Source: Chloracidobacterium sp. (GTDB taxonomy: Bacteria > Acidobacteriota > Blastocatellia > Pyrinomonadales > Pyrinomonadaceae). From it: DNA of 64,000 nucleotides. The notes under the pieces were generated by a model, which was not told the origin of the DNA, ran no database searches, and saw nothing but the letters and a program-made list of their open reading frames with translations. Shown here in pieces: positions 5,449 through 59,326 of the stretch; position 1 is the stretch's first letter; each line of letters begins with the position of its first letter. The translations under genes and the position numbers were made by a program. The stretch spans positions 33,502 through 97,501 of the forward strand of contig JANMQG010000057.1 in NCBI GenBank assembly GCA_031370285.1, read 5' to 3'.

Positions 5449-5862
5449 ATGCAGAGCAGGGAGAAATGGAGGTTCGATACCGTGGCTAAAGATGATCGAG
5501 ACATTCTCGAACTGCTCAAGGAAGAACTGGCTTTCCTGGAGCAAGGTGGTTACGGACGCTCAGTCCGCACACCGTGGTTACCAAAGTCGGCCTTCCAGGA
5601 CTCCCTGACCTGCATTAACTATGGTTATCCCTATCGCGCGCATCCCTGCAGCGAGTGCCACCTGATTGATTTTGTTGACGAGAAGCATCACGGCGAACAG
5701 GTTCCCTGCCATTACATTCCCTTGAATGAGGCTGGCGAAACCATCGAAGACCTTGAAGCTCAGGACAATCAGGCAAAATTGGAACGCACTCTCAAGGAAT
5801 GGATGCGAGCCAAGATCGCGGAGATTGAGAAAGCGCGAGCGAAGGAGACGGTGAGTCTGTAA
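5449..5862 (+). CDS. hypothetical Cys/His-rich protein
   Basis: ORF from ATG 5449 (MQSREKWRFD...). CxxC-like HPCSECH...CH. C-terminal tail AEIEKARAKETVSL is re-used in the downstream duplication. Confidence 0.5.
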   Translation: MQSREKWRFDTVAKDDRDILELLKEELAFLEQGGYGRSVRTPWLPKSAFQDSLTCINYGYPYRAHPCSECHLIDFVDEKHHGEQVPCHYIPLNEAGETIEDLEAQDNQAKLERTLKEWMRAKIAEIEKARAKETVSL

Positions 5863-6577
5863 GCGAGAATTAGTGGAGGTGTAGCATGACGAAGGTCGTC
5901 GATGTAGTCGCTGCCCTCGCGGTGATGACGGGCCTGTTTTTCGGGGTTCGGTTTTTCAGTCGAGCCTATTTCCGCTACCGAGACTCTAGAATAATCATCT
6001 GCCCGGAAACCAACGAGCAGGCTCTGGTAGAGGTTGATGCTGTACATGCAGCGTTGACGTCGGCCTGGGGCCAACCGGATATTCGCTTACGCAACTGCTG
6101 GCGGTGGCCGCTGAACGAAAACTGCGGTCAGGAATGCCTGACGCAACTCGACGTGGCTTCGCCAGACCGTCTCGTTAGGGGAGTCCTGATGAGGTGGGCG
6201 GAGATTGAGGAAGCGCGAGCGAAGCAGACGGTGAGTCTGTAGGCGAGAATCAGAGGAGGTGTTGCATGACGAACGTCGTCTATGTGATCGCTGCTCTCGC
6301 GGTGATGACGGGCCTGTTTTTCGGGGTTCGTTATTTTATCCGTGCTTATTGCCGCTACCGAGACTCTAGAATAATCATCTGCCCGGACAGCAAGGAACAG
6401 GCGATGGTTGAGGTTGATGCCGTACACGCGGCATTGACTTCGGTTCTGGGCCAACCGGATATTCGCTTACGCAACTGCTGGCGGTGGCCGCTGAACGAAA
6501 ACTGCGGTCAGGAATGCCTGACGCAACTCGACGTGGCTTCACCAGAGTGCCTGGTTCGCGGAGTACTGATGAGGTGG
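5818..6577. repeat. diverged tandem duplication, 2 x 380 bp
   Basis: 5818-6197 aligns with 6198-6577, e.g. gcggagattgagaaagcgcgagcgaaggagacggtgagtctgtaagcgagaat versus gcggagattgaggaagcgcgagcgaagcagacggtgagtctgtaggcgagaat. Scattered substitutions throughout. Confidence 0.85.
5886..6242 (+). CDS. truncated/chimeric paralog of the 6266-6835 membrane-anchored Cys-rich protein
   Basis: 118 aa. First about 103 aa are near-identical to the N-terminus of the next gene. The last 14 aa (AEIEEARAKQTVSL) derive from the duplicated tail of the 5449-5862 gene. Confidence 0.55.
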   Translation: MTKVVDVVAALAVMTGLFFGVRFFSRAYFRYRDSRIIICPETNEQALVEVDAVHAALTSAWGQPDIRLRNCWRWPLNENCGQECLTQLDVASPDRLVRGVLMRWAEIEEARAKQTVSL

Positions 6578-6835
6578 TACGACCTCAAGCAGTGCGTCTA
6601 TTGCGGCAAGCCGTTCGAACAGATTCAGTGGGCGGATCACAAACCCGGTCTGCAGAGTCCGGACGGAAAGCTGGTTGAATGGAGCAAAGTTCCGATTGAG
6701 ACTATTCAGACGGTCATGACTACATATAGTCCGGTCTGCTGGGATTGCTATCTCGCCCAGTCGTTTCTTCGCGATAATCCAGACTTGGTCGTCTATCGCC
6801 CGTGGCGAGAGGGAATCCACCGAGCGGGCCCGTGA
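6266..6835 (+). CDS. membrane-anchored Cys-rich protein, unknown function
   Basis: 189 aa. N-terminal TM (VIAALAVMTGLFFGV) and multiple Cys pairs (NCWRWP..NCGQEC, CVYCG, CWDC). Confidence 0.6.
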   Translation: MTNVVYVIAALAVMTGLFFGVRYFIRAYCRYRDSRIIICPDSKEQAMVEVDAVHAALTSVLGQPDIRLRNCWRWPLNENCGQECLTQLDVASPECLVRGVLMRWYDLKQCVYCGKPFEQIQWADHKPGLQSPDGKLVEWSKVPIETIQTVMTTYSPVCWDCYLAQSFLRDNPDLVVYRPWREGIHRAGP

Positions 6836-10700: not shown

Positions 10701-11258
10701 AATATTCTGGTGCTCGACACCGAGGTCTATTCAAACACTGGCGGCCAGGCGTCAAAGGCGACGCCGCTGGGCGCAGTGGCGAAGTTCGCAGCCGGCGGCA
10801 AGCCGACTGCAAAGAAGGACTTGGGAATCACCGCCATGCGCTACGGAGACGTATACGTTGCGCAAGTCGCCATGGGCGCAAACGACACCCACACAGTCAA
10901 AGCGTTTATCGAAGCCGAAGCGCATCACGGCCCATCACTGATCATTGCTTACAGCCAATGTATTGCGCACGGCATCGATATGGCGCTTGGCATGCGTCAA
11001 CAGAAGCTGGCAGTTGATTCCGGCCACTGGCCGCTCTTTCGTTACGATCCGAAGCTCGCAGCTGAGAACAAGAATCCTTTTCAGCTCGATTCACATGATC
11101 CGAAAATTCCTTTGCAAGACTATATCTACACCGAGGGTCGCTACCGCATGTTGAAACAGAGCGATCCCGAGGTAGCGAAGTTTCTCCTCGGCCAGGCGCA
11201 GAAGTCAGCGGATCGCCGGTGGCAACAATACAAGCAGATGGCGGAGAGGACGCGATGA
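7704..11258 (+). CDS. nifJ: pyruvate:ferredoxin (flavodoxin) oxidoreductase, single-polypeptide NifJ/YdbK type
   Basis: 1184 aa. N-terminus TIDGNEAAAHVAYKTNEVIAIYPITPSS, two ferredoxin-type CxxCxxCxxxCP motifs (CIECGKCVLVCP, CTGCRLCVEVCP), and a TPP-binding GGDGWAYDIG. Confidence 0.95.
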   Translation: MSNNSVTIDGNEAAAHVAYKTNEVIAIYPITPSSNMGESADAWAAKNEKNIWGMTPIVREMQSEGGAAGTVHGALQTGALTTTFTASQGLLLMIPNMFKIAGEQTSTVFHIAARSVATHALSIFGDHSDVMATRSTGWAMLFANSVQEVMDFALIAQASTLRSRVPFLHVFDGFRTSHEVMKIEKLSDDEIGAMIDDELVQAHRLRALTPDHPVMRGTAQNPDVFFQSRERANSFYLETPAIVEGVMDKLATLTGRRYRLFDYVGAPDAERVIVMMGSGCEAAEETVTALSARGEKVGLIKVRLFRPFSVDHLLAALPVSVRAIAVLDRTKEPGSAGEPLYQDVVTAISEGMMNGNTRWAKMPRIIGGRYGLGSKEFTPAMVKAVFDEMTKPASKNHFCVGIKDDVTFSSLAVDSKFTVEPGGQVRAMFWGLGADGTVSANKNSIKIIGEETANYAQGYFVYDSKKSGAMTVSHLRFGQQPIKSTYLIQSANFIAVHDFNFLNRYQILDPAEEGATLLLNSPYDAPEVWGHLARSVQETIIRKRIKVYSINAFAVAKERQLGNRINTIMQTCFFAISGVLPRQESIEKIKESIKKTYGKRGDAVVLQNFAAVDAALAHLHEVKIPEQASSAFDLQSAVAREAPQFVREVTAEMMAGRGDLLPVSAFPVDGTYPVGTAQWEKRNIAQEVPVWEPDLCIECGKCVLVCPHATIRAKVCHESDLENAPVGFKRMPAKWRELPDQLYTIQVAVEDCTGCRLCVEVCPAKDKSNVSRKALNMQPQLPLRDSERVNWDYFLKLPEIHKHGTLNFSSVKNVQLLQPLFEFSGACSGCGETPYIKLLTQLFGDRAVIANATGCSSIYGGNLPTTPYTTNSEGRGPAWSNSLFEDNAEFGLGMRLALDHQGAYARHLVERLRNSIGEDIAEGLLNTDQSAETGIAAERQLVGELKEKLKDIEGVESRDLFNVADSLVSKSVWIVGGDGWAYDIGYGGLDHVLASGQDVNILVLDTEVYSNTGGQASKATPLGAVAKFAAGGKPTAKKDLGITAMRYGDVYVAQVAMGANDTHTVKAFIEAEAHHGPSLIIAYSQCIAHGIDMALGMRQQKLAVDSGHWPLFRYDPKLAAENKNPFQLDSHDPKIPLQDYIYTEGRYRMLKQSDPEVAKFLLGQAQKSADRRWQQYKQMAERTR

Positions 11259-11389
11259 AAGTTTCGAGTTTCGAGTCTCAAGTTTCAAGTTTCAAGTTCG
11301 CCAATTCAAATGAGCCCCAACTGCGATGCTAAAAGAACGCTTAGCGTGAAATCCGGAACTTGAAACTTGAAACTTGAAACTCGAAACTT
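11259..11389. repeat. tandem-heptamer long-armed hairpin (GTTTCRA arms)
   Basis: Left arm aagtttcgagtttcgagtctcaagtttcaagtttcaagtt, right arm aacttgaaacttgaaacttgaaactcgaaactt, 58-nt loop, no T-tract. Confidence 0.85.
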
Positions 11390-11405: not shown

Positions 11406-12404
11406 ATGACCCTAACTACAAACTATCTCGGCCTGGTGCTGAAGAATCCCATCGTTGTCTCGTCGTGCCCTTTGTCACACACCGTCGATAGCATTCGCCG
11501 CCTCGAAGACGCCGGCGCCAGCGCGGTGGTGATGTATTCGCTGTTTGAGGAACAGATCACCTTCGACAGTCTATTGCTTGACCAATATCTCCGCAGCGGC
11601 ACGAACAGCTTCGCGGAATCACTCAGTTATTTTCCGGAGATGGACAACTACAACACGGGACCGGACGAATACATGAATTTGATCCGGCGCGCGAAAGAGG
11701 CCGTCGATATTCCGATCATCGGCAGCCTCAACGGCGTCTCCGCCGGAGGCTGGACCAATTACGCCGGGCTGATCGAAGCCGCCGGCGTGGACGCGCTGGA
11801 GCTTAACGTCTACTACGTTCCGACGAGCCTGGATCTGACCGGCCAGGAAGTTGAGAATATTTATCTGGACATGCTGCGCCAGGTGATGGCATCGGTGAAG
11901 ATTCCAATTGCGATGAAGCTAAGCCCGTTCTTCAGTTCTACCGCAAATATGGCGCAGCGGTTGGTCGGGGAAGGAGCTAGCGGACTTGTATTGTTCAATC
12001 GTTTCTATCAGCCGGACTTGAATTTGGAAACACTCGAAGTCGCGCCACGTTTGGTGCTCAGCAACTCGGACGAATTGCGTTTGCCACTGCGTTGGGTCGC
12101 GATTCTTTATGGACGCGTGCTTGCCGATTTGGCGATTACCAGCGGCGTGCACACTGCGGAAGATGTCTTGAAAGGGCTAATGGCGGGGGCCAAAGTAACG
12201 ATGATGGCTTCCGAGTTACTGCAGCGCGGCGTGCGCCGTATAAAAGAGACGGTGAATGAAATTGAGAGCTGGATGGACGAACACGAATACGAGTCCATAG
12301 CGCAGATGATCGGCAGCATGAGCCAAATACATTGCGCCGAGCCGGCCGCTTTTGAACGCGCTAACTACATGAAAACCCTCGATTCTTACCGGCCGATTAA
12401 CTAG
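11406..12404 (+). CDS. dihydroorotate dehydrogenase-like (class 1 DHOD/DHPD fold) protein
   Basis: 332 aa. TIM-barrel DHOD-like pattern [13 protein letters not shown]...ELNVYY...LVLFNRF. Commonly found beside PFOR. Confidence 0.8.
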
Positions 12405-30113: not shown

Positions 30114-30189
30114 TGGTGGAGCAGAGGAGGGTCGAACTCCTGGCCTCCGCATTGCGAACGCGGCGCTCTGCCAACTGAGCTACTGCCCC
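30114..30189 (-). tRNA. tRNA-Ala (anticodon CGC), CCA encoded
   Basis: Reverse complement folds as a cloverleaf: GGGGCAG-TA-GCTC-AGTTGGCA-GAGC-G-CCGCG-TTCGCAA-TGCGG-AGGCC-AGGAG-TTCGACC-CTCCT-CTGCTCC-A-CCA. Carries the G3:U70 alanine identity pair. Confidence 0.93.
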
Positions 30190-30206
30190 ACGCCACGCTA
30201 GAATAC

Positions 30207-30235
30207 AGTTTCGAGTTTCGAGTTTCAAGTTTGAG
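30207..30235. repeat. orphan GTTTCRA heptamer array (single arm)
   Basis: agtttcgagtttcgagtttcaagtttgag beside the tRNA 5' end. No inverted partner found nearby. Confidence 0.5.
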
Positions 30236-40072: not shown

Positions 40073-41545
<1,473 letters not shown>

Positions 41546-41591
41546 TTATTAACTCCTTGAAGATTTGCTATGAGATGAAAAGTCGATGATA

Positions 41592-41624
41592 GAAACAAAA
41601 CTGCCCGCCAATCGGAGCGGGCAG
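41592..41624 (-). terminator. Rho-independent terminator/attenuator between the RodZ-like gene and guaB
   Basis: Minus strand reads ctgcccgc-tccgattg-gcgggcag followed by ttttgtttc. Confidence 0.65.
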
Positions 41625-41728
41625 TCTTGAAGTAGTTTCTGTTGCTGACGAGGTTGTGGCGAGACTCCTGACAAGCGCGCGCACGCCTGTGTATTGAGCC
41701 CTCGGGCACAAACTCTGTCGACCAACAC

Positions 41729-42229
41729 TTATTGCAGGAACTGTTCGTAATCAGTTTTCCGAATATCCAAACCACCAGCGATACTTGCGGTAAGCGGCGC
41801 TTCATGATGTAACTCCGCGGACCGGCGCTGTACCCAGTGGAGCACGCTTAGCGCCACCGCAGTTAATATTGCCAGGATCACAATTGCCAGCACGACAGTC
41901 AAAAGCGGCGAGCGAGTGGCGGGTGCATCGGTATAAACCTTCGAGTGATAAGGGGTGCTTGCTACTTCTTCGCCTGTGCCTCCAGCTTCACGCATATAGC
42001 GCGTATAGCCTTCAATCGCCTCTTTCTCGTCGTAACCAACGTAACGAGCATAAGCTTTGACGAAGCTGCGATTGAAAATCCCGCCCGGCAAGCGTTTGTA
42101 ATCATTCGTTTCTATCGCTTCAAGGTAGTGCATCGAGATTCGCGTCTGATCGGAAATCTCGCGTAGCGGAATGCCGCGTCCCTCGCGTGCGAGTCGCAAC
42201 TGTTCACCGATAGTCGCTTCCATCACCAT
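41729..42229 (-). CDS. RodZ-like helix-turn-helix membrane protein
   Basis: HTH IGEQLRLAREGRGIPLREISDQTRISMHYLEAIE..FNRSFVKAYARYVG, one TM (LLTVVLAIVILAILTAVAL). Start uncertain (42229 or 42223 versus ORF start 42301). Confidence 0.7.
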   Translation of the reverse strand: MVMEATIGEQLRLAREGRGIPLREISDQTRISMHYLEAIETNDYKRLPGGIFNRSFVKAYARYVGYDEKEAIEGYTRYMREAGGTGEEVASTPYHSKVYTDAPATRSPLLTVVLAIVILAILTAVALSVLHWVQRRSAELHHEAPLTASIAGGLDIRKTDYEQFLQ

Positions 42230-42511
42230 TCGCTTCAGCCTTTTGCCTATCGCTTCGGTGGAGGTGGGCCTCGTTGGATACCAGTTGAAAGTAGACTGCA
42301 ACTTAGATTGCTGGAATCGGAGGCGGTCTAGCCCGCGCTGCTAAATCCCCTAATTGTTTGGCTGAATATATCTTGCGTTGCTAAACGCTGTCAACTTTTG
42401 CGTCAGAAAGAGAAGCGTCTCTTGATTCTTCGTGCGCGCGGTGATAGGTTTGCGCCTGCGATCGAACGTCGACTTTAATTTCTACAACAATAAAAAGTGA
42501 GGTTACATGAG

Positions 42512-42910
42512 ATGCCTTTAGAAGCACTCGGAATGGTGGAGACCAAGGGCTTTGTCGGAGCTGTCGAAGCCGCGGACGCGATGGTCAAAGCTGCGAATGT
42601 TCAGCTCATTGGAAAAGAGTATATCGGAGCCGGTTACGTGACGATCTTTGTTCGCGGAGACGTGGGCGCGGTTAAGGCAGCCACCGACGCCGGAGCAGCG
42701 GCAGCGCGAAGAGTCGGCGAACTGATTAGTGTTCACGTGATTCCTCGCCCACATGCTGAAGTCGAGCGCGTCTTACCGGCCGACGGGCGCACCGGTTTGA
42801 GCCCGGATGAGCGCTCGCTTGGAGGTGGCACTCGAGGCCAGTTGGGAGAAGGCGATCAGGGGCGCTCGCTTCACGGCGCGCGAGAAGGAAGCAAGGAAAA
42901 AGCCAGGTAA
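42512..42910 (+). CDS. BMC-H (hexamer) shell protein with about 45-aa Gly/Arg/Glu-rich C-terminal tail
   Basis: [58 protein letters not shown], the canonical PduA/EutM/CcmK-type BMC domain. Confidence 0.9.
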
Positions 42911-42913
42911 ACC

Positions 42914-42988
42914 GATTTTAGATTTCAGATTTCGGATTTTGGATTGGTGCCTTCCAAATCGCCAATCAAAAATCAGAAATCAAAAATC
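42914..42988. repeat. tandem-heptamer hairpin (GATTTYR arms)
   Basis: gattttagatttcagatttcggattttggattgg / short loop / ccaaatcgccaatcaaaaatcagaaatcaaaaatc. Confidence 0.8.
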
Positions 42989-43005
42989 GTGTTGGGGGGT
43001 TCGTC

Positions 43006-44886
43006 ATGTCCGCAGACAAGGACCTGATCTCGGTACAGCAGGCGCGGGACCTGGTAGAAGCCGCTTATAAGGCGCAGGCTGAGATCGTCAAATTTGACCA
43101 GGCAAAGATCGATCGAATTTGCGAGGCCATGTCCCGGGCCGCTCTGCGCGAAGCCGCCCGCCTCGGCGCATTGGCCGTGGAGGAAACCGGCTTCGGTATC
43201 CCGGACGATAAGCGAGAGAAGAACCGTTTTGCCGCTGAAGATGTTTGGAACTACTTTCGCGGGTTGCGCACTGTCGGCGTCGTTTCAGAATCAAGAGATG
43301 TTGTAGAGATAGCGAGCCCGCGCGGCGTTGTTGCCGGCATCATCCCTTCCACCAATCCGACCTCCACGGCGATCTTTAAAGTTTTGATCGCGGTCAAATC
43401 CAGAAACGCTATTGTGCTTTCCCCTCATCCGTCCGCGGCTCGTTGTATCAACGAAACGGTGCAGGTGATGCGCGAAGCGGCCATCAAAGAAGGTCTGCCG
43501 GCGGACGCGGTTGCCTGCATGACGACCGCCACCATCGAAGGCACTGAAGCTTTGATGAAACACAAGCAGACGGCTGTCATCCTGGCTACCGGCGGCATTG
43601 GGCTGGTGCGCGCAGCTTATTCATCGGGCAAACCCGCGTTTGGAGTCGGCCCCGGTAACGTTCCTGTTTTTATCGAGAGAACTGCGGATGTTACCAAAGC
43701 GGTTCAGGATATTTTGACTGGAACGACTTTCGACAACGGAACCATTTGCGCTTCTGAGCAAGCTGTAGTTTGTGATGCTCCTATTGAAAAAGCTGTAAGG
43801 GAACAATTCAAAGCGCAGGGCGGGCACTTTCTTTCCGCTGCGGAAGCTGACCAACTGGGCAAAGTGGTGGCAACTCCACAACGTTCTCTAAACCCCGGGA
43901 TCGTAGGAAAGTCGGTCGAGGTGATTGCCAAGCTGGCCGGGTTGAACGTCCCTCCAGGCACGCGCTGCCTGATGGTGGATGTTGGCGGTGTCGGACGTGA
44001 GTTTCCGCTGTCTATGGAAAAGCTCTCACCCATCCTCGCGTTCTATGTGACGGACGGCTTATCGCGTGGCGCGGAGCGTTGCTATGAAATCCTGCGCTAC
44101 GGCGGCATGGGCCACACCGCGGGAGTTCACACTCGTTCGCGCGAGGCCGCGGTCCGCTTCGGCGGGGAGATGCCGGCGTCGCGCATTACGGTGAATACAC
44201 CTACAACTCACGGGGCGATTGGTTTCTCGACGGCGCTTCCGCCATCGATGACCCTGGGCTGCGGTTCGTGGGGCGGCAATGTAACTTCGGATAATGTGTC
44301 GCCACTCCACTTGCTGGATATCAAGCGAGTAGCTTTTGAAACAAGAGCAGTGAAAAGTAAACGGCCGGCAGTTGCAGCTTCTACGGTAGCCACTCCTGCG
44401 CCAGCGGCCGCGTATGCCGGAACGACTGCGAGCTCGGCGCCAGCTCAACCTCAGGCGGTAGTTGGTTCTGGTGCGGGCAAGATCAACCGCGAAGACATCG
44501 CCGCGATAGTCGACCGGTTTCTGGCGGGGCGCCAACCGGAGCAGCCGTCGAGTGAAGCAAGGGAGACGCGACAGCAACCGTCGCGCGCAGCAAGCGAGCC
44601 CGAAGCCGAAGCTGGCAGCATGTATGCCGGACCAGGCCAGAACCGAACTGATAATGTCCGCCAGCCGGCAAATGCCGGCCGATCATCTTCGGCATCTTCG
44701 GCTGGCTCCAGTTCAAGCAGCGCTTTGACCGCGAACAATGGCGCGAAGACGGTTGACTTCGTTAGTGAAGACGACGTCAAACGCGCGATTCAAAAAGGTG
44801 AGAAGATCTATATCAACGCGAAAACCATTATCACTCCGGCAGCCCGTGACATCGGCGAACCGGGCGAAGTGTTTGCTAAAGGCTAA
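43006..44886 (+). CDS. CoA-acylating aldehyde dehydrogenase (PduP/EutE-like) with 180-aa C-terminal extension
   Basis: Core about aa 1-446 with catalytic Cys in [11 protein letters not shown] (codon 43747-43749). Then an Ala/Ser/Pro-rich linker, amphipathic [16 protein letters not shown], a second Ser-rich linker, and the terminal module [33 protein letters not shown]. Confidence 0.9.
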
Positions 44887-44978
44887 AGTTTCAAGTTCCA
44901 AGTTCCAGGTTTCAAGTTAGGCGCTCAGGGCCAGACTGGAAACCTGGAACTTGGAACTTGAAACTTGGAACTTGAAAC
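44886..44978. repeat. tandem-heptamer hairpin (GTTYCAA/GTTCCAR arms)
   Basis: aagtttcaagttccaagttccaggtttcaagtt / loop / ctggaaacctggaacttggaacttgaaacttggaacttgaaac. The right arm ends 1 nt before ATG 44980. Confidence 0.85.
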
Positions 44979-44979
44979 C

Positions 44980-45309
44980 ATGTTCTTAGGCAAAGTCGTC
45001 GGCACAGTTTGGTCTACCAAGAAGACTCCCGATCTTGAAGGCATCCGCTTTCTGGTCGTGCACCCCTATGATCTGGAAAAAGATCCAACCCGGAACATCG
45101 TCATTGTTGCCGATCGGCTGGGCGCCGGAAGTGGCGAGATGGTGATTTGTGCCTTTGGCAAAGCAGCGCGCACGGCAATGGGCAATCAGGACATGGCAAT
45201 CGAAGCCGCAGTCGTTGGGATAGTCGATCGGGTGGACATCACCGACACGGCTTCAGAAGAGATGCGCGAGGCGGCGCGTCAACTCGCGCGCGATAATGGA
45301 AGACAGTGA
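44980..45309 (+). CDS. BMC-P (pentamer/vertex) shell protein, EutN/CcmL family
   Basis: MFLGKVVGTVWSTKK...LVV...VADRLGAGSGEMVICAFGKAAR...EAAVVGIVDRVD. Confidence 0.9.
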   Translation: MFLGKVVGTVWSTKKTPDLEGIRFLVVHPYDLEKDPTRNIVIVADRLGAGSGEMVICAFGKAARTAMGNQDMAIEAAVVGIVDRVDITDTASEEMREAARQLARDNGRQ

Positions 45310-45413
45310 GGAGTGAAAAGTGAAGAGTGAAAAGGCGTTGAATTGTGCTGAGGTTTGATTCACGCGCTAGCCAACATTCCAGAACTCATCACTTTTCACT
45401 TTTTACCTTTCAC
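45306..45413. repeat. tandem-heptamer hairpin (GTGAARA arms)
   Basis: gtgaggagtgaaaagtgaagagtgaaaag / 50-nt loop / ctcatcacttttcactttttacctttcac. Confidence 0.85.
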
Positions 45414-45421
45414 TGGTTTTT

Positions 45422-45901
45422 ATGGCTAACGAAGATTTGATTTACCGGCTCACGAAGGCCGTCTACGGCCGCCTGGGTCCGGCAGCGGACGAGCAAACCG
45501 TCGAGCAACTCGTCACAGAAGTGTTCCGCGAGATCGAGCCCTTTCTGCACGCGAACGGATCGTCATACTCCTCTTTACAATCTCTTCCCGCGAGCGGCAC
45601 CGCTGCTTCGCAATCGCCGGAAGGTTCTGCTGACCGAATGATCATTTCGGTGTTTGGCGTAGACCATCCCGGCATTGTCGCCGGAGTCGCCCAGATACTG
45701 GCCGGTGCCGGCTGCAGCATTGTGGATATCAACCAGACGGTAGTGCAGGGCAAGTTTGCCATGGTCATCATCGCCAACAGCGCGCACGCGCGGGAGAGCG
45801 CAGCCGAATTGAAAGAGCGACTGCGGAGCGAAGGGGAAAAACTTGGCGTCCGTATCTACGCGCAGCGTGAAGATCTCTTTAACGCCATGCACCGGATTTG
45901 A
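45422..45901 (+). CDS. ACT-domain protein of the UPF0237 type with 71-aa N-terminal extension
   Basis: C-terminal 88 aa: MIISVFGVDHPGIVAGVAQILAGAGCSIVDINQTVVQGKFAMVII...GVRIYAQREDLFNAMHRI, as in UPF0237 partners of UPF0210. The N-terminus has helices LIYRLTKAVYGRL and VEQLVTEVFREIEPFL followed by a Ser/Pro/Ala linker. Confidence 0.8.
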   Translation: MANEDLIYRLTKAVYGRLGPAADEQTVEQLVTEVFREIEPFLHANGSSYSSLQSLPASGTAASQSPEGSADRMIISVFGVDHPGIVAGVAQILAGAGCSIVDINQTVVQGKFAMVIIANSAHARESAAELKERLRSEGEKLGVRIYAQREDLFNAMHRI

Positions 45902-45903
45902 AT

Positions 45904-46018
45904 GTCGAATTTCGGATTGCGGAATTCGAATTGAAGAACCGAGACTTTCAAACTTCAAATTAAAAGCACAGCTGACAATGGACAAAACCCGCAATCCGAA
46001 ATTCGCAATCCGAAATTC
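45904..46018. repeat. long-armed hairpin (GAATTTCGGATTGCG arms)
   Basis: gtcgaatttcggattgcggaattcgaattg / 56-nt loop / cgcaatccgaaattcgcaatccgaaattc. Confidence 0.85.
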
Positions 46019-46023
46019 CCACT

Positions 46024-46560
46024 ATGCCTGAACCAGAAATTGCTCGACGCTGTCCCACCTGCGGCGCATCAATTCGCGAGGTAGCCCTCTTCTGTCCGCA
46101 ATGTGGCAACGCGCAGCCACACCGGCAAGCGCGCGCCGCAGCCGCACTCCCAGAAACGACTTCTAAAAGTACAGCCCCCCTGGAAGACTCAGAGGCCGAG
46201 GCGCCGCAGAAGTCTATGTCCGACACAATCGCGATTGAGAGACCTGAAGATGCGCCCAAAGTTCCGGCTAACGCGCGATCTATGTCTGACACTATCGCGA
46301 TTGAGAGACCTGAAGAAACGCCCAAAATCTCGGCTAGTCCAAACGTACGTGGAGCGGTGGGCGCAAAGCTGCAGCGTGCCACCACGCTCGTGCGTGATGT
46401 CGAAGGCGACGTGATTTATCGAGTGCAGAAAGTGCGTGAGATCTCCAGTGTAGTTTTGGATGAAGCGGGAAACGATCCCGGGCTGCGTTTTTTGCTGGTC
46501 GCCGGAATCCTCTTTGTTCTGTTTCTCGTCATTGTGTTGTTGAATAGATTGATTACGTAG
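46024..46560 (+). CDS. zinc-ribbon protein with C-terminal TM anchor and internal 22-aa tandem repeat
   Basis: CPTCGASIREVALFCPQCG. SMSDTIAIERPE(D/E) twice (DNA repeat 46213-46250 / 46279-46316, period 66). C-terminal LRFLLVAGILFVLFLVIVLL. Confidence 0.65.
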   Translation: MPEPEIARRCPTCGASIREVALFCPQCGNAQPHRQARAAAALPETTSKSTAPLEDSEAEAPQKSMSDTIAIERPEDAPKVPANARSMSDTIAIERPEETPKISASPNVRGAVGAKLQRATTLVRDVEGDVIYRVQKVREISSVVLDEAGNDPGLRFLLVAGILFVLFLVIVLLNRLIT

Positions 46561-46654
46561 AGTTTTTAGTTTTGAGTTTTGAGTTTAAGGAAGAGCCACA
46601 CCAGCGAAAGCCGCGTATCTCAAAACTAAAAACTCAAAACTCAAAACTTAGAAC
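46561..46654. repeat. tandem-heptamer hairpin (GTTTTGA arms)
   Basis: agtttttagttttgagttttgagtttaag / 29-nt loop / ctcaaaactaaaaactcaaaactcaaaacttagaac. Confidence 0.85.
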
Positions 46655-46663
46655 TAGAAAACC

Positions 46664-48025
46664 ATGGAATATTCGCAAGCAGAAATCCTTCAAACCGTCG
46701 CGATGACGGAAATGGAACACCTGGACGTTCGCACCGTAACGCTGGGTCTGAGTCTGCGCGACTGCGCCAGCGAAACAATCACGCGCACCGCCGAACGCGC
46801 GGTGGAAAAAATTCACCGGTTCGCCGATGTTTTGGTTCAGACTGTCGACGCGATAGGCGACGAATTTGGGATACGCATCGCCCACAAGAGAATCGCGATA
46901 ACGCCGGTGTCGATGATTACGGAAAGCGCCTCCGGCGATCCGGTCAACCTGGCACGTGCGATTGACGAGGTCGCAGCCGCAGTCGGCGTGGATTTTATTG
47001 GTGGCTATTCCGCGCTGGTTCACAAGGGAGCCACCGATTCCGAGCGCGAGTTTATGAACTCCATTCCCGAAGCGCTCTCCGTCACCAAGAGGTTGTGTTC
47101 ATCTGTGAACGTTGCGACCACGCGCGCCGGCATAAACATGGACGCGGTGCGGCAGGTGGGAATCATCATCAAGGAAGCCGCCGAGCGCACCAGCAACGAA
47201 GGCGGCATCGCCTGCGCAAAGTTTGTCTGTTTTGCGAATTCAGTTGAAGACAATCCCTTCATGGCCGGAGCTTTTCACGGGCTCGGCGAACCCGAGGCCG
47301 TGATCAATGTCGGCGTGTCCGGCCCCGGCGTTGTTAACTATGCCATCAGGCATGCCGCGCCAGATCTGCCGCTGCAGGAGTTAGCCGAAATCATTAAGAA
47401 GCTTTCGTTCAAACTTTCGCGCGCCGGCGAACTGGTGGGCAGGGAAGCCGCGCGCCGTCTGGGAATTCCTTTCGGCATTATTGATTTGTCACTCGCGCCG
47501 ACACCTGTGCCAGGTGATTCAGTGGCAAACATAATCGAGGCGATGGGTTTTGAAAGAGCGGGAACTCATGGCACCACTGCCGCGCTCGCCTTGCTTACCG
47601 ATGCAGTCAAAAAGGGCGGGGCGATGGCGAGCGGATCTGTCGGCGGTATGAGCGGCGCGTTCATTCCCGTTTCCGAGGACGCGGGCATGATCGAGGCCGT
47701 CCGCCTCGGCGCGCTTTCGCTCGATAAACTCGAAGCCTGGACCAGCGTCTGTTCTGTCGGTATTGATATGGTGGCCGTGCCCGGCTCAACTTCGGCCGAG
47801 ACTATCTCCGCAATCATTGCCGACGAGATGGCTATCGGTGTGATGAATAACAAGACCACGGCCGTCAGGATCATCCCGGCGCCCGGCCGGGTGGTAGGTG
47901 AGATGGTTGAGTTTGGCGGCCTGCTTGGCAGCGCGCCGATAATGGCAGTAAACGCGTTTTCGTCGGCCGGCTTCATCCATCGTGGCGGCCGCATTCCGGC
48001 GCCGATCCATTCGCTGCGGAACTAA
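46664..48025 (+). CDS. UPF0210 / DUF711 family protein
   Basis: 453 aa. N-terminus [27 protein letters not shown] and the length match my memory of the UPF0210 family, which is normally paired with a UPF0237 ACT protein. Confidence 0.8.
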
Positions 48026-48037
48026 AGCCGGGTAACA

Positions 48038-48171
48038 GAGCCCTCCATAACTGTCGGGCTACTGCCCCGGCGGAGATTGCGCGTGAATTCTCAAGTCTCG
48101 GCTGCTCGCGTCACTCAAAAATGGGCTTGCGGCGTAGCACGGGGCAGTAGCCCGACAGTTATGGAGGGCTC
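48038..48171. repeat. perfect 32-bp inverted repeat, 134-bp MITE/REPIN-like unit
   Basis: gagccctccataactgtcgggctactgccccg (48038-48069) and its exact reverse complement (48140-48171), 70-nt loop. Confidence 0.85.
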
Positions 48172-48273
48172 CGCTAACCCAACACTCAATCCTGGAGATG
48201 CCAATCTTTTCGTGCGGGACGCCCACGGTCTGGCAGATATGAAGATGGTCCTTATTAATTTGAATCAATAGGC

Positions 48274-48744
48274 ATGAGCTGTACGCCCAACACTCTTCGT
48301 CAAATCGCGCGCCGAAAATTCCACCGCTTCATCTTTTGCGCGGCCGGCATTTACAACATCGTCTGGGGTCTCTACTCAGTTTGGGACCCGCAGTGGTTGT
48401 TCCGATACTCTGGTCTGCCGCTACAAAACCATCCACAGATCTTCGCTTGCCTCGGTATGGTGGTGGGATTGTATGGGATTATTTATTTCGAGGTCGCGCG
48501 CGTTCCCGAGCGCGGCTGGTTGCTGGCCGCCGTCGGGCTGACAGGGAAAGTGCTTGGCCCCATCGGCCTCTTCCGCTTGATCTGGAGCAGTACGTGGCCG
48601 CGGGCGACGATGGTGTTGTCGCTCACAAACGATCTGATCTGGTGGGTCCCATTCGCCCTATATCTCTACGATGCCTGGCCGGCGTTTCGACAAGATGTAT
48701 TCCAAACGGTGAGCAACAAAGACTCTGGACAAATTGCAGGCTAA
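48274..48744 (+). CDS. hypothetical 4-TM membrane protein
   Basis: 156 aa with four hydrophobic segments. No SD seen, no motif recognised. Confidence 0.5.
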
Positions 48745-48794
48745 GGCTTAAGTTCTACCTATTCAACGGCAGCATAAGGAGCGGCGAAGAAAAA

Positions 48795-49118
48795 ATGGCA
48801 GAAGCACTCGGCATGGTTGAATGCATGGGACTGGTCGCGATGATCGAAGCGGCTGACGCAATGGTCAAAGCTGCTAACGTACGCCTCGTCGGCTGGGAAA
48901 AGATCGACGCCGGTTTAGTCACGGCGATAGTGAGGGGCGACGTCGCTGCGGTGCGTGCGGCCGTCGATGCCGGAGCTGCCGCCGGCAGCAAAGTCGGCAA
49001 GGTTGTTGCTACCCACGTAATTCCGCAACCGCATGGCGATGTCGATCTGGGGTTGCCGGTCCTGCAAACAGGTGAAACAACCAAGAAGAAGATTAGCGGT
49101 TCAGTTCGCGCGAAATGA
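48795..49118 (+). CDS. BMC-H (hexamer) shell protein, second paralog
   Basis: From ATG 48795 (AAGGAG upstream): [58 protein letters not shown]. Confidence 0.9.
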
Positions 49119-49301
49119 ATCCACAGATTTCGCAGATTACACCGATTCCGTAAAGACAAAAAAAATCGAACGCGAGTGAGAGGACGTTTCCAACAGTCTG
49201 CTTGCTTCTCTATCCCGAAACCAGAGAAAGGGTGTGATCATAAACCAGCCTTTCTGTTCAGGCTTATTCATATCTGTGTAATCTGCGAAATCTATGGATT
49301 C
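49117..49301. repeat. 26-bp inverted repeat with about 133-nt loop after BMC-H2
   Basis: gaatccacagatttcgcagattacac (49117-49142) versus gtgtaatctgcgaaatctatggattc (49276-49301), 1 mismatch. Confidence 0.75.
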
Positions 49302-49330
49302 GGTCCTAAGCTGCTGATTCCTGACCTCAA

Positions 49331-49972
49331 ATGAGTTTGACTCTCTATCTTCTTCGTCACGGACAAACCGCACTCAGTCGCGACGACGTCTTCTGTGGGT
49401 CCGGCCTTGATCCCGAGTTGACGCCGGAGGGCTTGCAGATGGCCAGGGCTTTCGCAGCGGCCTACAGCGCGAAACCCTGGCGTGCAATTTATTCCAGCAG
49501 TCTGCGACGAGGTATCGACACCGCTCAGCCGCTCTGCGATGAGCTGAAAATCTCAATTCAGGTACGCGCGGATCTAAATGAGATCGGCTATGGCAAATGG
49601 GAAGGACAAAACAGAGAGAACGTCGCCCGCGAATATCACGACGACTACGTGAGTTGGCTCGCCGATCCGGCCTGGCATGCGCCGACTGGCGGCGAGCTGG
49701 CGATCACGGTAGCCACGCGCAGCTTGCGGGTGATTGATGAAATCAAGCAGCAGTTTGCGGAGGGAAATGTCCTGATCGTTTCTCACAAGGCGACCATAAG
49801 AATAATTCTTTGCAGCCTGCTGGGGATCGATGTGGGCCGCTTTCGTTACCGGCTCGGCTGCCCGGTAGGTTCGGTTAGCGTGATTGAGTTTTCCCTCGAA
49901 GGTCCGCTGTTGCATTCATTGGCTGATCGTTTACACTTGAGTGAATCGTTGCGAGCCTTGCCTGGTACGTGA
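49331..49972 (+). CDS. histidine phosphatase family protein (phosphoglycerate mutase / CobC-like)
   Basis: LYLLRHGQT catalytic RHG motif, and a later SHKATIR. Confidence 0.85.
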   Translation: MSLTLYLLRHGQTALSRDDVFCGSGLDPELTPEGLQMARAFAAAYSAKPWRAIYSSSLRRGIDTAQPLCDELKISIQVRADLNEIGYGKWEGQNRENVAREYHDDYVSWLADPAWHAPTGGELAITVATRSLRVIDEIKQQFAEGNVLIVSHKATIRIILCSLLGIDVGRFRYRLGCPVGSVSVIEFSLEGPLLHSLADRLHLSESLRALPGT

Positions 49973-50018
49973 CACATGACGACAAACAAATCACGCTCGA
50001 TGGCTGACTAAAACACCT

Positions 50019-58528: not shown

Positions 58529-58766
58529 CCTCCAACGAGGCTGCGGAGCAGCCGGAAGAGTATTAGCCCCTGGCGAGGCTTTGCGAGCCTGGGGAAACAT
58601 CGCATGAAATCAACCGAGCCTGCGAAGCTGGCGACAGAATCTCGCCACTAGACCATTTCTGTCGCCAGCTTCGCAGGCTCATGGTTTTAGTTGGTCAACT
58701 TTCCCCAGGCTCGCAAAGCCTCGCCAGGGGCTAATACTCTATCGCCTGCTACGCAGGCTGGTTGAG
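58529..58766. repeat. about 240-bp nested palindrome of REP-like units (REPIN-like doublet)
   Basis: Perfect 41-bp arms agagtattagcccctggcgaggctttgcgagcctggggaaa (58557-58597) / reverse complement (58700-58740). Inner arms gagcctgcgaagctggcgacag / ctgtcgccagcttcgcaggctc. Confidence 0.85.
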
Positions 58767-59326
58767 TTATCCCCACAAGTGCGCTTCATCAAAGTCGATG
58801 TGGTGGGCCCTTAGTAACGCTTTGAACTCTTCTGCGAAAGAGAACTCTTGGTGATGCTTTTCCTGGTTGCGAATGTACAGTCTCACATTGTCGACTTGAG
58901 ATTCACTGACAGTGAACGCACCATAACGCGCCTGCCAGGCAAAGCGGCCTTTGGTTTGCCGTTTGGCCCAACCCGAAGAGTTCGCTTTCAACTTGCTCAA
59001 GAAGTCTGACACGGAGATGGTTGGACGTAGCTTAACCAGCAGATGGACATGATCTGACACTCCGTTGATCTCAATTGGAATGCATCCTAAACCGCGCACG
59101 ATACCTCCGAGATATTCGTGCAATCTAGGCTTCAACGTGTTCGTAATTAGTGGAGCGCGCTCCTTTGTCGCGTACACAACGTGACAGAGGAGATTGGTAT
59201 ATGACATATCTTTACCTCTTTCGCCTGCTAGCAGGCTCATTCCTTTTGGTTGGTTAGTTTCCCCAGGCTCGCAGAGCCTCGCCAGGGGCTAGGATTCTAT
59301 CGCCTGCATCACAGGCTGGTTGAGTG
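58662..59326 (-). mobile_element. IS200/IS605-family or RAYT-type element: Y1 transposase gene flanked by about 105-bp direct repeats
   Basis: 58662-58768 and 59221-59326 align (tcgcc.gct..gcaggctcat..tttccccaggctcgca.agcctcgccaggggcta..a.tctatcgcctgc..c.caggctggttgagt). About 665 bp total, IS200-like size. Confidence 0.7.
58767..59207 (-). CDS. tnpA: IS200-like / REP-associated tyrosine (Y1, HUH) transposase
   Basis: 146 aa from ATG 59207 (GAGG RBS). HUH motif DHVHLLV, catalytic Tyr region VRLYIRNQEKHH. Confidence 0.9.
   Translation of the reverse strand: MSYTNLLCHVVYATKERAPLITNTLKPRLHEYLGGIVRGLGCIPIEINGVSDHVHLLVKLRPTISVSDFLSKLKANSSGWAKRQTKGRFAWQARYGAFTVSESQVDNVRLYIRNQEKHHQEFSFAEEFKALLRAHHIDFDEAHLWG

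Follow-up and report, generated by a model that had tools for sequence, protein, structure and literature searches.

The REP/BIME palindromes of enterobacteria belong to one or a few conserved families of 20–40 nt that carry a GTAG/CGTC tag and owe their mobility to RAYT transposases. By stabilising the mRNA upstream of them, REPs bring about differential expression within operons (e.g. malE-malF); when located near a stop codon, they can also disturb termination. In plant pararetroviruses, a stable stem separates a stop codon from the next start, its base close to both, and the ribosome resumes beyond it; to our knowledge, no bacterial equivalent of such ribosome shunting has been demonstrated.

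Effects on transcription or translation are suspected for the STRR heptamers of heterocystous cyanobacteria and the heptamer repeats of Nostoc. Xanthomonas genomes each contain 70–75 “convergent” inverted pairs of the GGGAATC heptamer simple sequence repeat (SSR), G-rich arm first, which are transcribed and keep the same gene neighbours in related species while length and sequence vary (Rehm et al. 2015, PMC4692102). The TAACTGA repeats of Beggiatoaceae form 169 direct sets versus 1 inverted set and lack secondary structure by prediction; their ends frequently lie 1 nt short of a start codon, and a role in translation was proposed (PMC4679880).

Heptamer hairpins at five junctions of a microcompartment operon

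We analyzed a 64,000-nt stretch of DNA (the window) from a soil acidobacterium that contains a microcompartment operon, an ACI-type BMC satellite operon. Its co-directional string BMC-H > AldDH > BMC-P > ACT > Zn-ribbon > DUF711 has five junctions (J1–J5), and at each of them inverted arms built of heptamers in tandem take up the whole gap between stop and start codons (energies are RNA minimum free energies):

42512..42910, + strand: BMC-H shell protein gene, the operon's first (Pfam PF00936, E 4e-29)
42912..42995, + strand: J1 hairpin, left arm (GATTTYR)n ~42913-42945, right arm ~42964-42988, terminal loop 10 nt; −29.3 kcal/mol, z −5.4
43006..44886, + strand: aldehyde dehydrogenase (AldDH), 626 aa, with a long C-terminal extension (Pfam PF00171)
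44886..44978, + strand: J2 hairpin, (AAGTTYC)n / (GRAACTT)n; −60.1 kcal/mol, z −9.3
44980..45309, + strand: BMC-P (EutN/CcmL) pentamer gene (Pfam PF03319)
45304..45415, + strand: J3 hairpin, (GTGAARA)n / (TYTTCAC)n; −45.0 kcal/mol, z −5.3
45422..45901, + strand: ACT-domain protein (Pfam PF13740/PF01842)
45907..46018, + strand: J4 hairpin, GAATTTC GGATTGC GGAATTC / CGCAATC CGAAATT x2, arms separated by ~58 nt; −34.3 kcal/mol, z −5.0
46024..46560, + strand: Zn-ribbon protein (Pfam zinc-ribbon families)
46561..46655, + strand: J5 hairpin, (AGTTTTK)n / (MAAAACT)n; −34.8 kcal/mol, z −6.2
46664..48025, + strand: DUF711/UPF0210 protein, which ends the hairpin-punctuated string (Pfam PF05167, E 6e-177)

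Tandem Repeats Finder located period-7 arrays at 42914-42939/42964-42988, 44886-44918/44941-44978, 45312-45334/45389-45414, 45990-46018, and 46560-46586/46622-46662, and an inverted-repeat search paired the arrays into arms of 23–40 nt with 85–92% complementarity, confirming the five elements of the preliminary description. That description had given units of 7–8 nt and a “15-mer” at 45904-46018; the units are always 7 nt, and the supposed 15-mer is a degenerate heptamer, GRATTKC. Across J1–J5, none of 200 dinucleotide shuffles folded as well as the native sequence (−29.3 to −60.1 kcal/mol, z −5.0 to −9.3).

The J1 hairpin is followed by a Shine-Dalgarno sequence (SD), GGGGGG, and the AldDH ATG at 43006; the BMC-H gene has a GAGG SD of its own. 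J2 forms a perfect 28-bp stem (44886-44913 with 44939-44966), its left arm overlapping the AldDH TAA stop and its right arm, which has extra units, stopping 1 nt short of the BMC-P ATG at 44980. The first repeat of J3 includes the BMC-P TGA stop, and a T5 at 45417-45421 lies immediately 5′ of the ATG at 45422, an exception to the earlier statement that no element is followed by a T-tract. J5 begins directly 3′ of the TAG stop, with the next ATG at 46664. No SD was found before the BMC-P ATG at J2 or the DUF711 ATG at J5, and scans of the + strand of J1–J5 for promoter or terminator consensus found none, in keeping with the operon-internal placement claimed earlier. The Zn-ribbon protein has a hydrophobic C-terminal tail, and its gene contains a 66-nt tandem repeat (46213-46336; Tandem Repeats Finder).

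The claim that every junction of the BMC locus carries a heptamer hairpin holds for these five junctions only: REP-like palindromes without heptamers lie in the gaps between DUF711 and the next gene (48030-48179) and between BMC-H2 and a phosphatase gene (49117-49301), and the gap at 48744-48795 contains no palindrome. Two further heptamer features lie elsewhere in the window:

11259..11389, + strand: sixth heptamer hairpin, outside the BMC locus, (AAGTTTC)n / (GAAACTT)n
30204..30234, + strand: lone unpaired (AGTTTCG)n array, adjoining tRNA-Ala

The sixth hairpin (−56.4 kcal/mol, z −8.9) sits between PFOR (7704-11258) and a DHODH-like gene (11406-12404). Its unit essentially matches the J2 unit AAGTTYC (87.5% identity over 40 nt), and the view that each junction has its own repeat sequence is therefore correct within the locus but not across the window. 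Many matches of the J2 and 11259 elements elsewhere stem from shared repeat arms. Overall, the window contains 13 period-7 arrays versus 0–1 for each of periods 5, 6, and 8–14, and arrays occupy 4–5 of the 5 operon junctions versus 1 of 30 neighbouring co-directional gaps.

Conserved position and structure, changing sequence

We compared 80 orthologous Pyrinomonadaceae loci (AldDH identity down to 73%), using gene calls from a home-made codon model for the census. J1–J5 are structured in most of the 80 species, with a structured spacer retained in 59–97% depending on the junction, and heptamer arrays with differing units occur at 51–76% of the junction gaps, ∼50 unit families turning over among them. 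Median gap lengths are 90–123 nt and median minimum free energies −30 to −41 kcal/mol. The median z of operon spacers of 60–200 nt is −5.3 (z < −3 in 74%), compared with −1.1 (20%) for other co-directional gaps and −3.2 (52%) for convergent, terminator-type gaps. Arrays are present at 241/396 operon junctions (61%) versus 25/458 neighbouring co-directional gaps (odds ratio 28; 5–15% of neighbouring gaps overall), a comparison made with flanks of ±10 kb and among loci that are phylogenetically non-independent. Coding sequence makes up 82% of the DNA, yet intergenic regions hold 486 of the 513 arrays. As proposed for orthologous loci, position and structure are thus kept while sequence turns over; since the same junctions keep hairpins with different repeats in most of the 80 species, the elements look like a repeat-built counterpart of the stem-loops by which operons tune expression.

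Several lineages have lost the hairpin at single junctions, where it must therefore be dispensable. Gap lengths are bimodal, hairpin-less junctions collapsing to TAATG, ATGA, or ≤25 nt. Whole-element orthologous matches were found for J1 (J1 of L014, L016, L044, L068, and L074) and J4 (J4 of L006 and L015).

Conspecific strain contigs that are ∼98–99% identical differ by slippage of one unit and by exchange of the whole J1 hairpin. One (L202) has a one-unit insertion in J2 (+7 nt, AACCTGG) at 44941, and in two others (L203 and L204) J1 is replaced by a CAGTGGT-type hairpin, a different heptamer hairpin whose boundaries are unchanged in L203 (99.1% identity). Four synonymous changes in the final four codons of BMC-H accompany the swap, an indication that it arose by homologous recombination between alleles rather than by transposition. 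The elements evolve through slippage of whole units and through the exchange of one complete hairpin for another.

About 12 common unit families recur across junctions and species, and junctions of the same genome share a family more often than expected by permutation (41/339 observed, 27.7 ± 4.2 expected, P = 0.0025), leaving unsupported the suggestion that sequence diversity serves to avoid recombination. The argument against spread of one repeat family is half right, given these recurrent families and the whole-hairpin swap between strains. The 51 unit families show no common motif (3.63 bits versus a null of 3.57 ± 0.14), and no copies of whole elements or loops were found at other sites besides same-site orthologues.

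The elements are also found in metagenome contigs, in ordinary operons (between SmpB/PepA, MraZ/RsmH, ACAD/EtfB, MoeA/MoaC, and Bcp/YggX) and in convergent gaps, some flush with both stop codons. Among these non-BMC cases, 26 of 34 begin ≤15 nt after the upstream stop codon, the distance to the next start codon is variable, and SD frequency equals background. True REP-like dispersed palindromes are present in the same genomes. The hairpins are therefore not specific to BMC loci and belong to a class spread through genomes of Pyrinomonadaceae and other soil bacteria.

Candidate roles and origins

We tentatively favour, with a probability of roughly 0.45, the reading of the elements as REP-like intercistronic RNA hairpins that arose from heptamer SSRs and act post-transcriptionally. 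Judged from sequence comparison, their conserved position and structure and the ∼28-fold enrichment would fit such a role, possibly in stoichiometry, and we count in its favour that the replacement allele at J1 is again a hairpin. The intergenic restriction, the lack of promoter and terminator signals, the bimodal gap lengths, and the arm geometry, SD pattern, and E. coli re-initiation data given below speak for it as well. On this view, a single polycistronic mRNA would include the hairpins, which would function at the RNA level, with each 25–40-bp AT-rich “zipper” stem hindering 3′-to-5′ decay and/or offering an RNase III-type processing site; mRNA segments upstream of each stem, BMC-H first, would thereby outlast those downstream. 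At J2–J5, the stem may also sequester the G-poor leader of the SD-less next gene and leave ∼10–15 unpaired nt between stop and start codons; translation of the downstream gene would in that case require ribosomes that terminate at the upstream one. In combination, the effects could fix the expression ratios of shell : enzyme : accessory proteins.

Rather less probable, in our judgement, is that the hairpins are neutral or selfish by-products of mutation, in which heptamer SSRs expand through polymerase slippage, turn into quasi-palindromes through template switching, and accumulate where harmless; tight junctions would tolerate only self-folding inserts, and mutational homogenisation rather than selection would keep the structure, with no benefit to the host. 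The one-unit slip between strains fits this, as do the collapses to overlapping stop and start codons in several lineages, the use of one unit vocabulary at many unrelated sites in many taxa, and the genome-wide bias towards heptamer SSRs that is ascribed to polymerase slippage (Mrazek 2007, as cited in PMC4692102). The arms also behave as interchangeable zippers without mirrored fine structure: pairing is 87% in the best register versus 82–86% when shifted by 7 or 14 nt, and units within an arm are 85% similar. Among stem mismatches (∼11%), a strand-specific test for RNA counted 212 of G.U type in the sense strand versus 199 of A.C type (p = 0.55), and this lack of asymmetry, with the indifference to register, means that base-pair-level selection on the sense RNA is not demonstrated. 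Bacterial deletion bias, however, should erase 100-nt inserts, yet structured spacers persist in most species, and hairpin-less spacers, instead of being long and unstructured, measure ≤25 nt with few exceptions. The operon's enrichment over its neighbours and a swapped J1 allele that is still a hairpin also speak against this reading. Nor would a symmetric mutational process predict the strict arm polarity first noted at J1–J5, which holds beyond the window: in 115/136 pairs G and T prevail in the 5′ arm, A and C in the 3′ arm (pooled left arms A.26, C.14, G.27, T.33; pooled right arms A.36, C.26, G.14, T.23).

The junction geometry raises the possibility, which we think improbable, of a translational stop-start bridge, a bacterial analogue of ribosome shunting with no part for mRNA stability, in which the terminating ribosome opens the lowest ∼12 bp so that the A/C-rich leader is released, and then re-initiates at the SD-less start across the closed stem. 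The arms are flush with both codons (left arm 0–5 nt 3′ of the stop; right arm a median of 7–10 nt from the ATG at J2–J5 and 17 nt at J1), the 3′ arm is G-poor, and an SD precedes 1/265 genes at J2–J5 versus 39% of genes overall; hairpin-less collapsed junctions, overlapping or ≤25 nt, likewise lack one (0/34). Re-initiation in E. coli declines with linear distance, SD-less re-initiation falling to <3% at 40 nt (PMC2268962). However, J1 has a free SD in 79/79 cases and is still the most constantly occupied junction (hairpin in ∼97% of species), which excludes stop-start bridging as the general role. The non-BMC hairpins, moreover, hug the upstream stop at varying distances from the next start, with background SD frequency, and occur in convergent gaps too, and ∼61% of genes in the compared genomes lack an SD anyway.

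Mobile or protein-recognised elements, whether REP/RAYT-type, MITEs, or binding arrays with a 7-nt footprint, are very unlikely to account for the hairpins. The limited unit vocabulary re-used across junctions and species, its sharing within genomes, the whole-cassette replacement between strains, and the co-occurring REP-like palindromes could all be read this way, and cold-shock-domain proteins would be candidate binders in that each binds one heptamer with a preference for T-rich units (PMC4679880). Against this stand the motif-less diversity of units, the failure to find element copies beyond orthologous sites, and a J1 swap pointing to homologous recombination; no transposase was identified either, though without a systematic search. 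Least likely of all are transcription terminators or attenuators, or DNA-level structures (cruciform, G-quadruplex) affecting replication or supercoiling: for all the elements flush with both stops in convergent gaps, the T5 after J3, and the discussion of Xanthomonas heptamer pairs as G4 or cruciform formers, a tract of T4 or longer follows within 12 nt in only 11/136 pairs, the + strand terminator scan was negative, termination at each junction would leave the distal genes of a conserved six-gene string silent, and most units lack the G-runs that a G-quadruplex requires.

Comparison with known systems

The pararetrovirus shunt hairpin and termination-reinitiation signals resemble the heptamer hairpins only as a possible mode of action, shunt systems being eukaryotic and scanning-dependent. 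The STRR and Nostoc heptamers are likewise tandem, intergenic, and of several unit families, often near start codons and inside operons, but STRRs are mainly direct arrays, with few paired or inverted cases reported in Nostoc, come from a different phylum, and have no reported family-wide positional conservation as hairpins. Like the Xanthomonas GGGAATC pairs (PMC4692102), the elements here are heptameric, mostly intergenic between co-directional genes, and of the same polarity; Xanthomonas, however, has one G-rich family with G-quadruplex potential, whereas many units, mostly without G-runs, are used here, in hairpins that span whole junctions from stop to start and are concentrated in one operon. 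The Beggiatoaceae TAACTGA repeats (PMC4679880) share the placement of intergenic heptamer arrays close to start codons, but consist of one unit, almost always direct and without predicted structure.

REP/BIME elements are likewise imperfect palindromes found only in extragenic DNA that is transcribed, often just 3′ of stop codons, in both co-directional and convergent gaps. Unlike REPs, the heptamer hairpins are built from tandem units of ∼50 families without a common motif, and their stems are longer and AT-rich; we know of no link between them and RAYT transposases. By analogy, REP/BIME elements would nevertheless be the best functional model for the heptamer hairpins.

Heptamer hairpins occupy the junctions of a BMC gene string

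The window (55% GC) carries a string of microcompartment (BMC) genes that is preceded by IMPDH and a divergent HTH gene.

Genes of the BMC locus in the window
42512–42910, + strand: BMC-H, first gene of the co-directional string
43006–44886, + strand: aldehyde dehydrogenase (AldDH)
44980–45309, + strand: EutN-type BMC-P
45422–45901, + strand: ACT-domain protein
46024–46560, + strand: Zn-ribbon protein
46664–48025, + strand: DUF711 protein
48795–49118: second BMC-H, continuation of the locus beyond DUF711

The five gaps from BMC-H to DUF711 (J1 to J5 in gene order), of 93–122 nt each, are all filled by an inverted repeat with tandem-heptamer arms, confirming the preliminary description, which had also called for folding energies. 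These hairpins fold strongly, at −29 to −60 kcal/mol (z of −5.0 to −9.3 against shuffled sequence), and all 200 dinucleotide shuffles fold less well. The period is singular: the window holds 13 period-7 arrays against 0–1 for each other period from 5 to 14. The fourth junction, previously read as built from a 15-mer, in fact contains a degenerate heptamer array (GAATTTC GGATTGC GGAATTC). The statement that every junction of the locus is so occupied holds for the first five and fails further on, where the palindromes at 48030–48179 (z −11.7) and 49117–49301 (z −6.4) are non-heptameric. A further hairpin of this very type is found 31 kb upstream, at 11259–11389, in a PFOR/DHODH-like gap (z −8.9).

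A consensus scan found no + strand promoter or terminator in the junctions, and no terminator on that strand anywhere in 41500–50000. In an Rfam 15 scan of the window, tRNA-Ala was the sole match, and the heptamer hairpins match no curated covariance model at its gathering score. A lone unpaired array, (AGTTTCG)x3.7, lies 15 nt before the 5′ end of this tRNA-Ala(CGC), which is on the − strand (30114–30234 region); read in tRNA orientation, the array presents the A/C-rich strand.

The window also contains long non-heptamer palindromes with arms of 22–65 nt, at 48030–48179, 49117–49301, 58533–58764, and 241–331. The arms of the first, second, and last recur elsewhere in nine of the comparison loci, and the only other copy of the 58533 palindrome is a partial one within the window (59217–59322). 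These palindromes resemble dispersed families of the REP/MITE type, present side by side with the heptamer hairpins.

Three coding features of the window are recorded here. The Pfam Aldedh match of AldDH is limited to residues 9–271 and is followed by a long, low-complexity, Ala/Ser/Pro-rich C-terminal extension, whose conserved terminal segment is a candidate module for encapsulation or interaction. The Zn-ribbon gene contains an in-frame 66-nt (22-aa) tandem repeat (46213–46336, 1.9 copies); a conspecific contig is one copy short, so that protein length differs between strains. A 380-bp tandem duplication (5818–6577; 2.0 copies, 88% identity) runs across the small ORFs 5886–6242 and 6266–6835.

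Structure and position are kept across the family, and the unit is not

Scanning with back-translated AldDH recovered 80 orthologous loci (AldDH identity 73–90%), all from MAGs of Pyrinomonadaceae or Blastocatellia (Acidobacteriota) and all with the same synteny: IMPDH(−), HTH(−), BMC-H, AldDH, BMC-P, ACT, Zn-ribbon, and DUF711. ACI-type microcompartments occur only in Acidobacteria subdivisions 4 and 6 and have their AldDh on a satellite locus (Sutter et al. 2021, PMC8217296); the BMC-H-to-DUF711 string is most probably this ACI satellite locus.

The 80 loci (1.25 Mb) contain 501 period-7 arrays, compared with 0–27 for periods 5, 6, and 8–13. With the window included, 486 of 513 arrays are intergenic despite 82% of the DNA being coding, where gene calls and start codons, and hence the coding/intergenic split, come from a simple codon model. 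The same set yields 136 inverted pairs (median arm 30 nt, median loop 36 nt), found in co-directional (119), convergent (4), and divergent (6) gaps. Across the orthologous junctions J1–J5, the median gap is 90–123 nt and the median minimum free energy −30 to −41 kcal/mol; 59–97% of spacers fold below −20 kcal/mol, and 51–76% contain one or more strict heptamer arrays. Many of the 80 loci derive from short-read MAGs, and the same hairpins are also present in megabase long-read contigs.

Operon spacers of 60–200 nt have a median z of −5.3 (z < −3 in 74%), against −1.1 (20%) in other co-directional gaps of the same size and −3.2 (52%) in convergent gaps, all computed with mononucleotide shuffles. 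The comparison across orthologs proposed in the preliminary description thus shows that junction structure and position are kept; the unit differs among species and persists within clades.

Heptamer units at orthologous junctions among species
J1: GATTGCC, CAGTGGT, or GATTTTA
J2: GTTTCGA, GTAAATC, or CAGTTGT
J3: GAGTGAT or GTGAAAA
J4: GTAAATG or GRATTKC
J5: GTTTCGA

Four loci have nested compound hairpins at J2, with inner (CTTTGRN)n arms inside outer (CAGTTGT)n arms; these may represent intermediate stages at which one unit family is displacing another.

The operon is a hotspot within a wider distribution

Heptamer arrays occupy 241 of 396 junctions of the operon. In the gaps of its ±10 kb flanks, which served as the comparison set, they occur in 25 of 458 co-directional, 17 of 141 convergent, and 24 of 155 divergent gaps; the odds ratio of operon junctions against neighbouring co-directional gaps is 28, in counts that pool related species. 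Within the window alone, a strict detector finds arrays in 4/5 junctions (5/5 by eye) versus 1/30 other co-directional gaps. The BMC operon is exceptionally dense in these hairpins. Sixteen of the occupied divergent gaps, in 16 orthologous loci, are the operon's own leader, the HTH/BMC-H gap that is the site of its promoter and 5′ UTR. The AGAGGTC family is mostly found there, and the window's own leader has no arrays.

An unbiased metagenome scan for at least three copies of GTTTCRA returned 120 contigs (GC 32–69%) with 319 period-7 arrays, against 0–26 at other periods. Their 66 inverted pairs lie mainly in co-directional gaps (39; convergent 6, divergent 2), and the left arm has G > C in 50 and C > G in 8. 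Only 3–4 BMC operons occur among these contigs. The hairpins sit mostly between other gene pairs, among them SmpB/PepA, MraZ/RsmH, acyl-CoA dehydrogenase/EtfB, MoeA/MoaC, and Bcp/YggX, and are therefore not a microcompartment feature.

Polarity, geometry, and Shine-Dalgarno motifs

The G-rich strand forms the 5′ arm in 115 of the 136 pairs, with G = C in most exceptions, and by unit family the count is 19 versus 6 (p = 0.015). Pooled left arms have G.27, C.14, and T.33; right arms have C.26, G.14, and A.36. Because either strand of an inverted repeat gives the same reading, this polarity is intrinsic rather than a strand bias. Transcription-coupled strand skew is ruled out as its cause, the polarity being equal on both strands and the sense right arm A/C-rich.

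The left arm starts inside the stop codon or 0–5 nt past it, and the right arm ends at a median distance from the ATG of 7–10 nt at J2–J5 and 17 nt at J1. Stems are AT-rich (~41% GC), with a median best stem of 27 bp and ~11% mismatches; J2 of the window has 28 perfect bp. Stop triplets in the unit, considered as a source of out-of-frame stops, were rejected on inspection, since the common units GATTGCC and GTTTCGA contain none.

A Shine-Dalgarno (SD)-like motif precedes the start codon at J1 in 79/79 species and at J2–J5 in 1/265 cases, against a background of 39% of 792 confident genes. Gap lengths are bimodal: either 60–200 nt with a hairpin or ≤25 nt (TAATG, ATGA, 4–20 nt), with few between, and the short hairpin-less junctions also lack an SD (0/34). 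Outside BMC operons, the constant feature is nearness to the upstream stop codon (≤15 nt in 26/34); spacing to the next start codon is variable and SD motifs occur at background frequency.

Unit turnover and allele replacement

Clustering at ≤1 mismatch gave ~51 unit families, of which ~12 are common and reappear at different junctions and in different species; within the window, J2 and the 11259–11389 element have a unit in common. No motif is shared by all families beyond chance (3.63 bits vs 3.57 ± 0.14); such a motif would have pointed to one binding protein for all units or to a transposase tag. Units had been proposed to diverge at neighbouring sites so as to avoid recombination. We see no sign of this: among junction pairs of the same genome, 41 of 339 have a family in common, more than the 27.7 ± 4.2 expected by permutation. 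The window's J1 and J4 match whole elements of some species at 72–83% identity, an orthology that points to vertical descent.

Conspecific contigs were found through BMC-P and BMC-H protein look-ups; an exact-protein look-up of AldDH returned no record. One contig 98.1% identical to the window (L202) differs in J2 by precisely one added unit, AACCTGG (+7 nt), in the right arm. In a second (L203), which matches the window at 99.1% identity on either side, J3 and J4 are unchanged and J2 differs by a single substitution. At J1 (window 42901–42990), this contig carries an unrelated CAGTGGT/CAGTTGT-type hairpin with the same boundaries (2345–2447), and the four final codons of BMC-H show synonymous changes alone (AAA GCC AGG TAA to AAG GCG CGG TAG). 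A third J1 allele occurs in L204, whose flanks are ~99% identical to the window. As read from these alignments, the swap has the pattern of allelic homologous recombination rather than transposition.

Look-ups of the DUF711 and DHODH-like proteins returned two contigs, with 100% and 99.97% identity to the window, from independent short-read assemblies of the same strain or a near-identical one, both ending inside such elements: one (L205) stops at window position 48066, inside the palindrome at 48030–48069, and another (L206) begins at 11360, inside the right arm of the 11259–11389 hairpin. With two Logan contigs ending in them, hairpins and palindromes evidently fragment short-read assemblies, and the hairpins can be expected to mislead the prediction of gene starts in Acidobacteriota MAGs.

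Selection at the RNA level and a possible role

Stems were scored by Watson-Crick pairs alone, so that neither mismatch type is favoured. A.C mismatches in the sense strand are G.U only in the antisense transcript, and the asymmetry test gave no signal (212 sense G.U vs 199 A.C mismatches, p = 0.55). Arm complementarity is 87% in the best register, 82% on average (86% at best) when shifted by 7 or 14 nt, and 85% among units within an arm. Because the best register barely exceeds the shifted ones, the arms behave as interchangeable zippers, which makes classical covariation analysis uninformative on arm pairing. No selection on individual base pairs of the sense RNA can be detected. Since a 27-bp zipper is highly redundant, these negative tests are no proof of neutrality; they are no support for function either.

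The reading we favour, at slightly below even odds, is a REP-like post-transcriptional role. The hairpins would be transcribed as parts of polycistronic mRNA, with stems that would block decay or serve as processing sites directly behind each stop codon. At J2–J5, which lack an SD, the stems may also gate downstream initiation, sequestering a G-poor leader and holding stop and start codons close together. In Escherichia coli, re-initiation without an SD amounts to <3% at 40 nt separation (PMC2268962). If J2–J5 are translationally coupled, their 100-nt spacers could be tolerated only in folded form.

The main rival holds that the hairpins arise by slippage and template switching and are tolerated, without bringing any benefit. 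The negative wobble test, lineage-specific losses, and the constant occupation of J1, which bears an SD, all count against the favoured role. Function is favoured because the hairpins persist against deletion bias in most of the 80 species and are 28-fold enriched over neighbouring gaps, and because gaps contain either a hairpin or an overlap, polarity is fixed, and hairpins are replaced by hairpins. Less likely are sequence-specific protein recognition or transposition, set against units without a shared motif and an allelic pattern of replacement; termination, given the empty terminator scan; and purely DNA-level roles.

A much bolder version of the post-transcriptional reading, to which we give little credence, makes the zippers a dedicated bacterial device by which terminating ribosomes re-initiate across SD-less spacers of ~100 nt, the prokaryotic equivalent of ribosome shunting. 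A single-strand-binding chaperone with a 7-nt footprint (e.g. a cold-shock-domain protein) would fit the 7-nt register; by attaching to the G/U-rich 5′ arm, it would set whether the zipper is open or closed, and shell:cargo stoichiometry would then respond to temperature or growth state. Such a device, if real, would also explain the long-noted heptamer excess and fixed polarity in several phyla.

Protein stoichiometry matters in microcompartments, and the setting here is the stoichiometry-sensitive shell hexamer, pentamer, and enzyme of an uncharacterised ACI-type microcompartment. The locus is an unusually clean natural experiment: five adjacent junctions in 80 species keep structure, position, and polarity as the unit turns over, with SD and SD-less junctions side by side and one-unit or whole-hairpin alleles within a species. 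Whether such elements are junk or expression-tuning RNA structure is directly testable at this locus.

Comparison with known repeat and hairpin systems

An excess of heptamer repeats in bacterial intergenic DNA has been known since 1990 and 2007; we know of no accepted function for it. In the literature searched, such elements are described neither from Acidobacteriota nor from BMC operons, and a preprint on structured intergenic regions (Minerva) does not mention them.

Like REP/BIME elements, the hairpins are extragenic, follow stop codons, and lie in co-directional or convergent gaps (486/513 arrays intergenic; 26/34 non-BMC hairpins ≤15 nt after a stop), and they are presumably transcribed. 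REP/BIME consist of one conserved palindromic family in many copies, whereas here ~51 families differ at neighbouring junctions. REP/BIME further carry a conserved GTAG/CGTC tag and go together with a RAYT (IS200/IS605-like) transposase; the absence of a motif common to the units argues against a comparable tag. With no conserved sequence family and probably no tag, the heptamer hairpins are not REP members; by analogy, they may work like REP/BIME stem-loops.

MITEs have terminal inverted repeats around a conserved core, a target-site duplication, and near-identical dispersed copies, a combination not seen here. BLAST across 200 loci found no copy of a whole element or loop away from its orthologous site, with only repeat arms matching elsewhere, and the strain-level swap looks like allelic recombination.

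Intrinsic terminators have a short GC-rich stem, a 3–8-nt loop, and a U-tract, in contrast to the ~41% GC stems and median 36-nt loops found here. The earlier claim that no hairpin is followed by a T-tract holds except at J3, where T5 lies directly before the ATG; in the whole set, a downstream run of T4 or longer follows 11 of 136 pairs. At ~20 bp or more of near-continuous double strand, as predicted by folding, the stems qualify as putative RNase III substrates.

The hairpins fit the description of heptameric simple-sequence repeats (SSR/STRR): tandem 7-nt units that are intergenic, over-represented (501 vs 0–27 arrays), and polymorphic by whole units, as in the +7 nt of L202. Xanthomonas has inverted heptamer pairs with the G-rich arm first and the arms close together, as seen here (136 pairs, median loop 36 nt, G-rich arm first in 115), and the polarity of its GGGAATC pairs has been termed 'convergent' (PMC4692102). 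The Xanthomonas unit has a G-tract and is G-quadruplex-capable, whereas the units here (AGTTTCG, ATTGCCG, AGTTGTC, AAATGGT, etc.) are without G3 runs. The identification as heptameric SSR inverted repeats, of a kind known from Xanthomonas (one family) and related to cyanobacterial STRRs, is well supported. New here are the large number of unit families, the occupation of every junction of a conserved operon from stop to start codon across a bacterial family, the contrast between SD and SD-less junctions, and the within-species swap of a whole hairpin.
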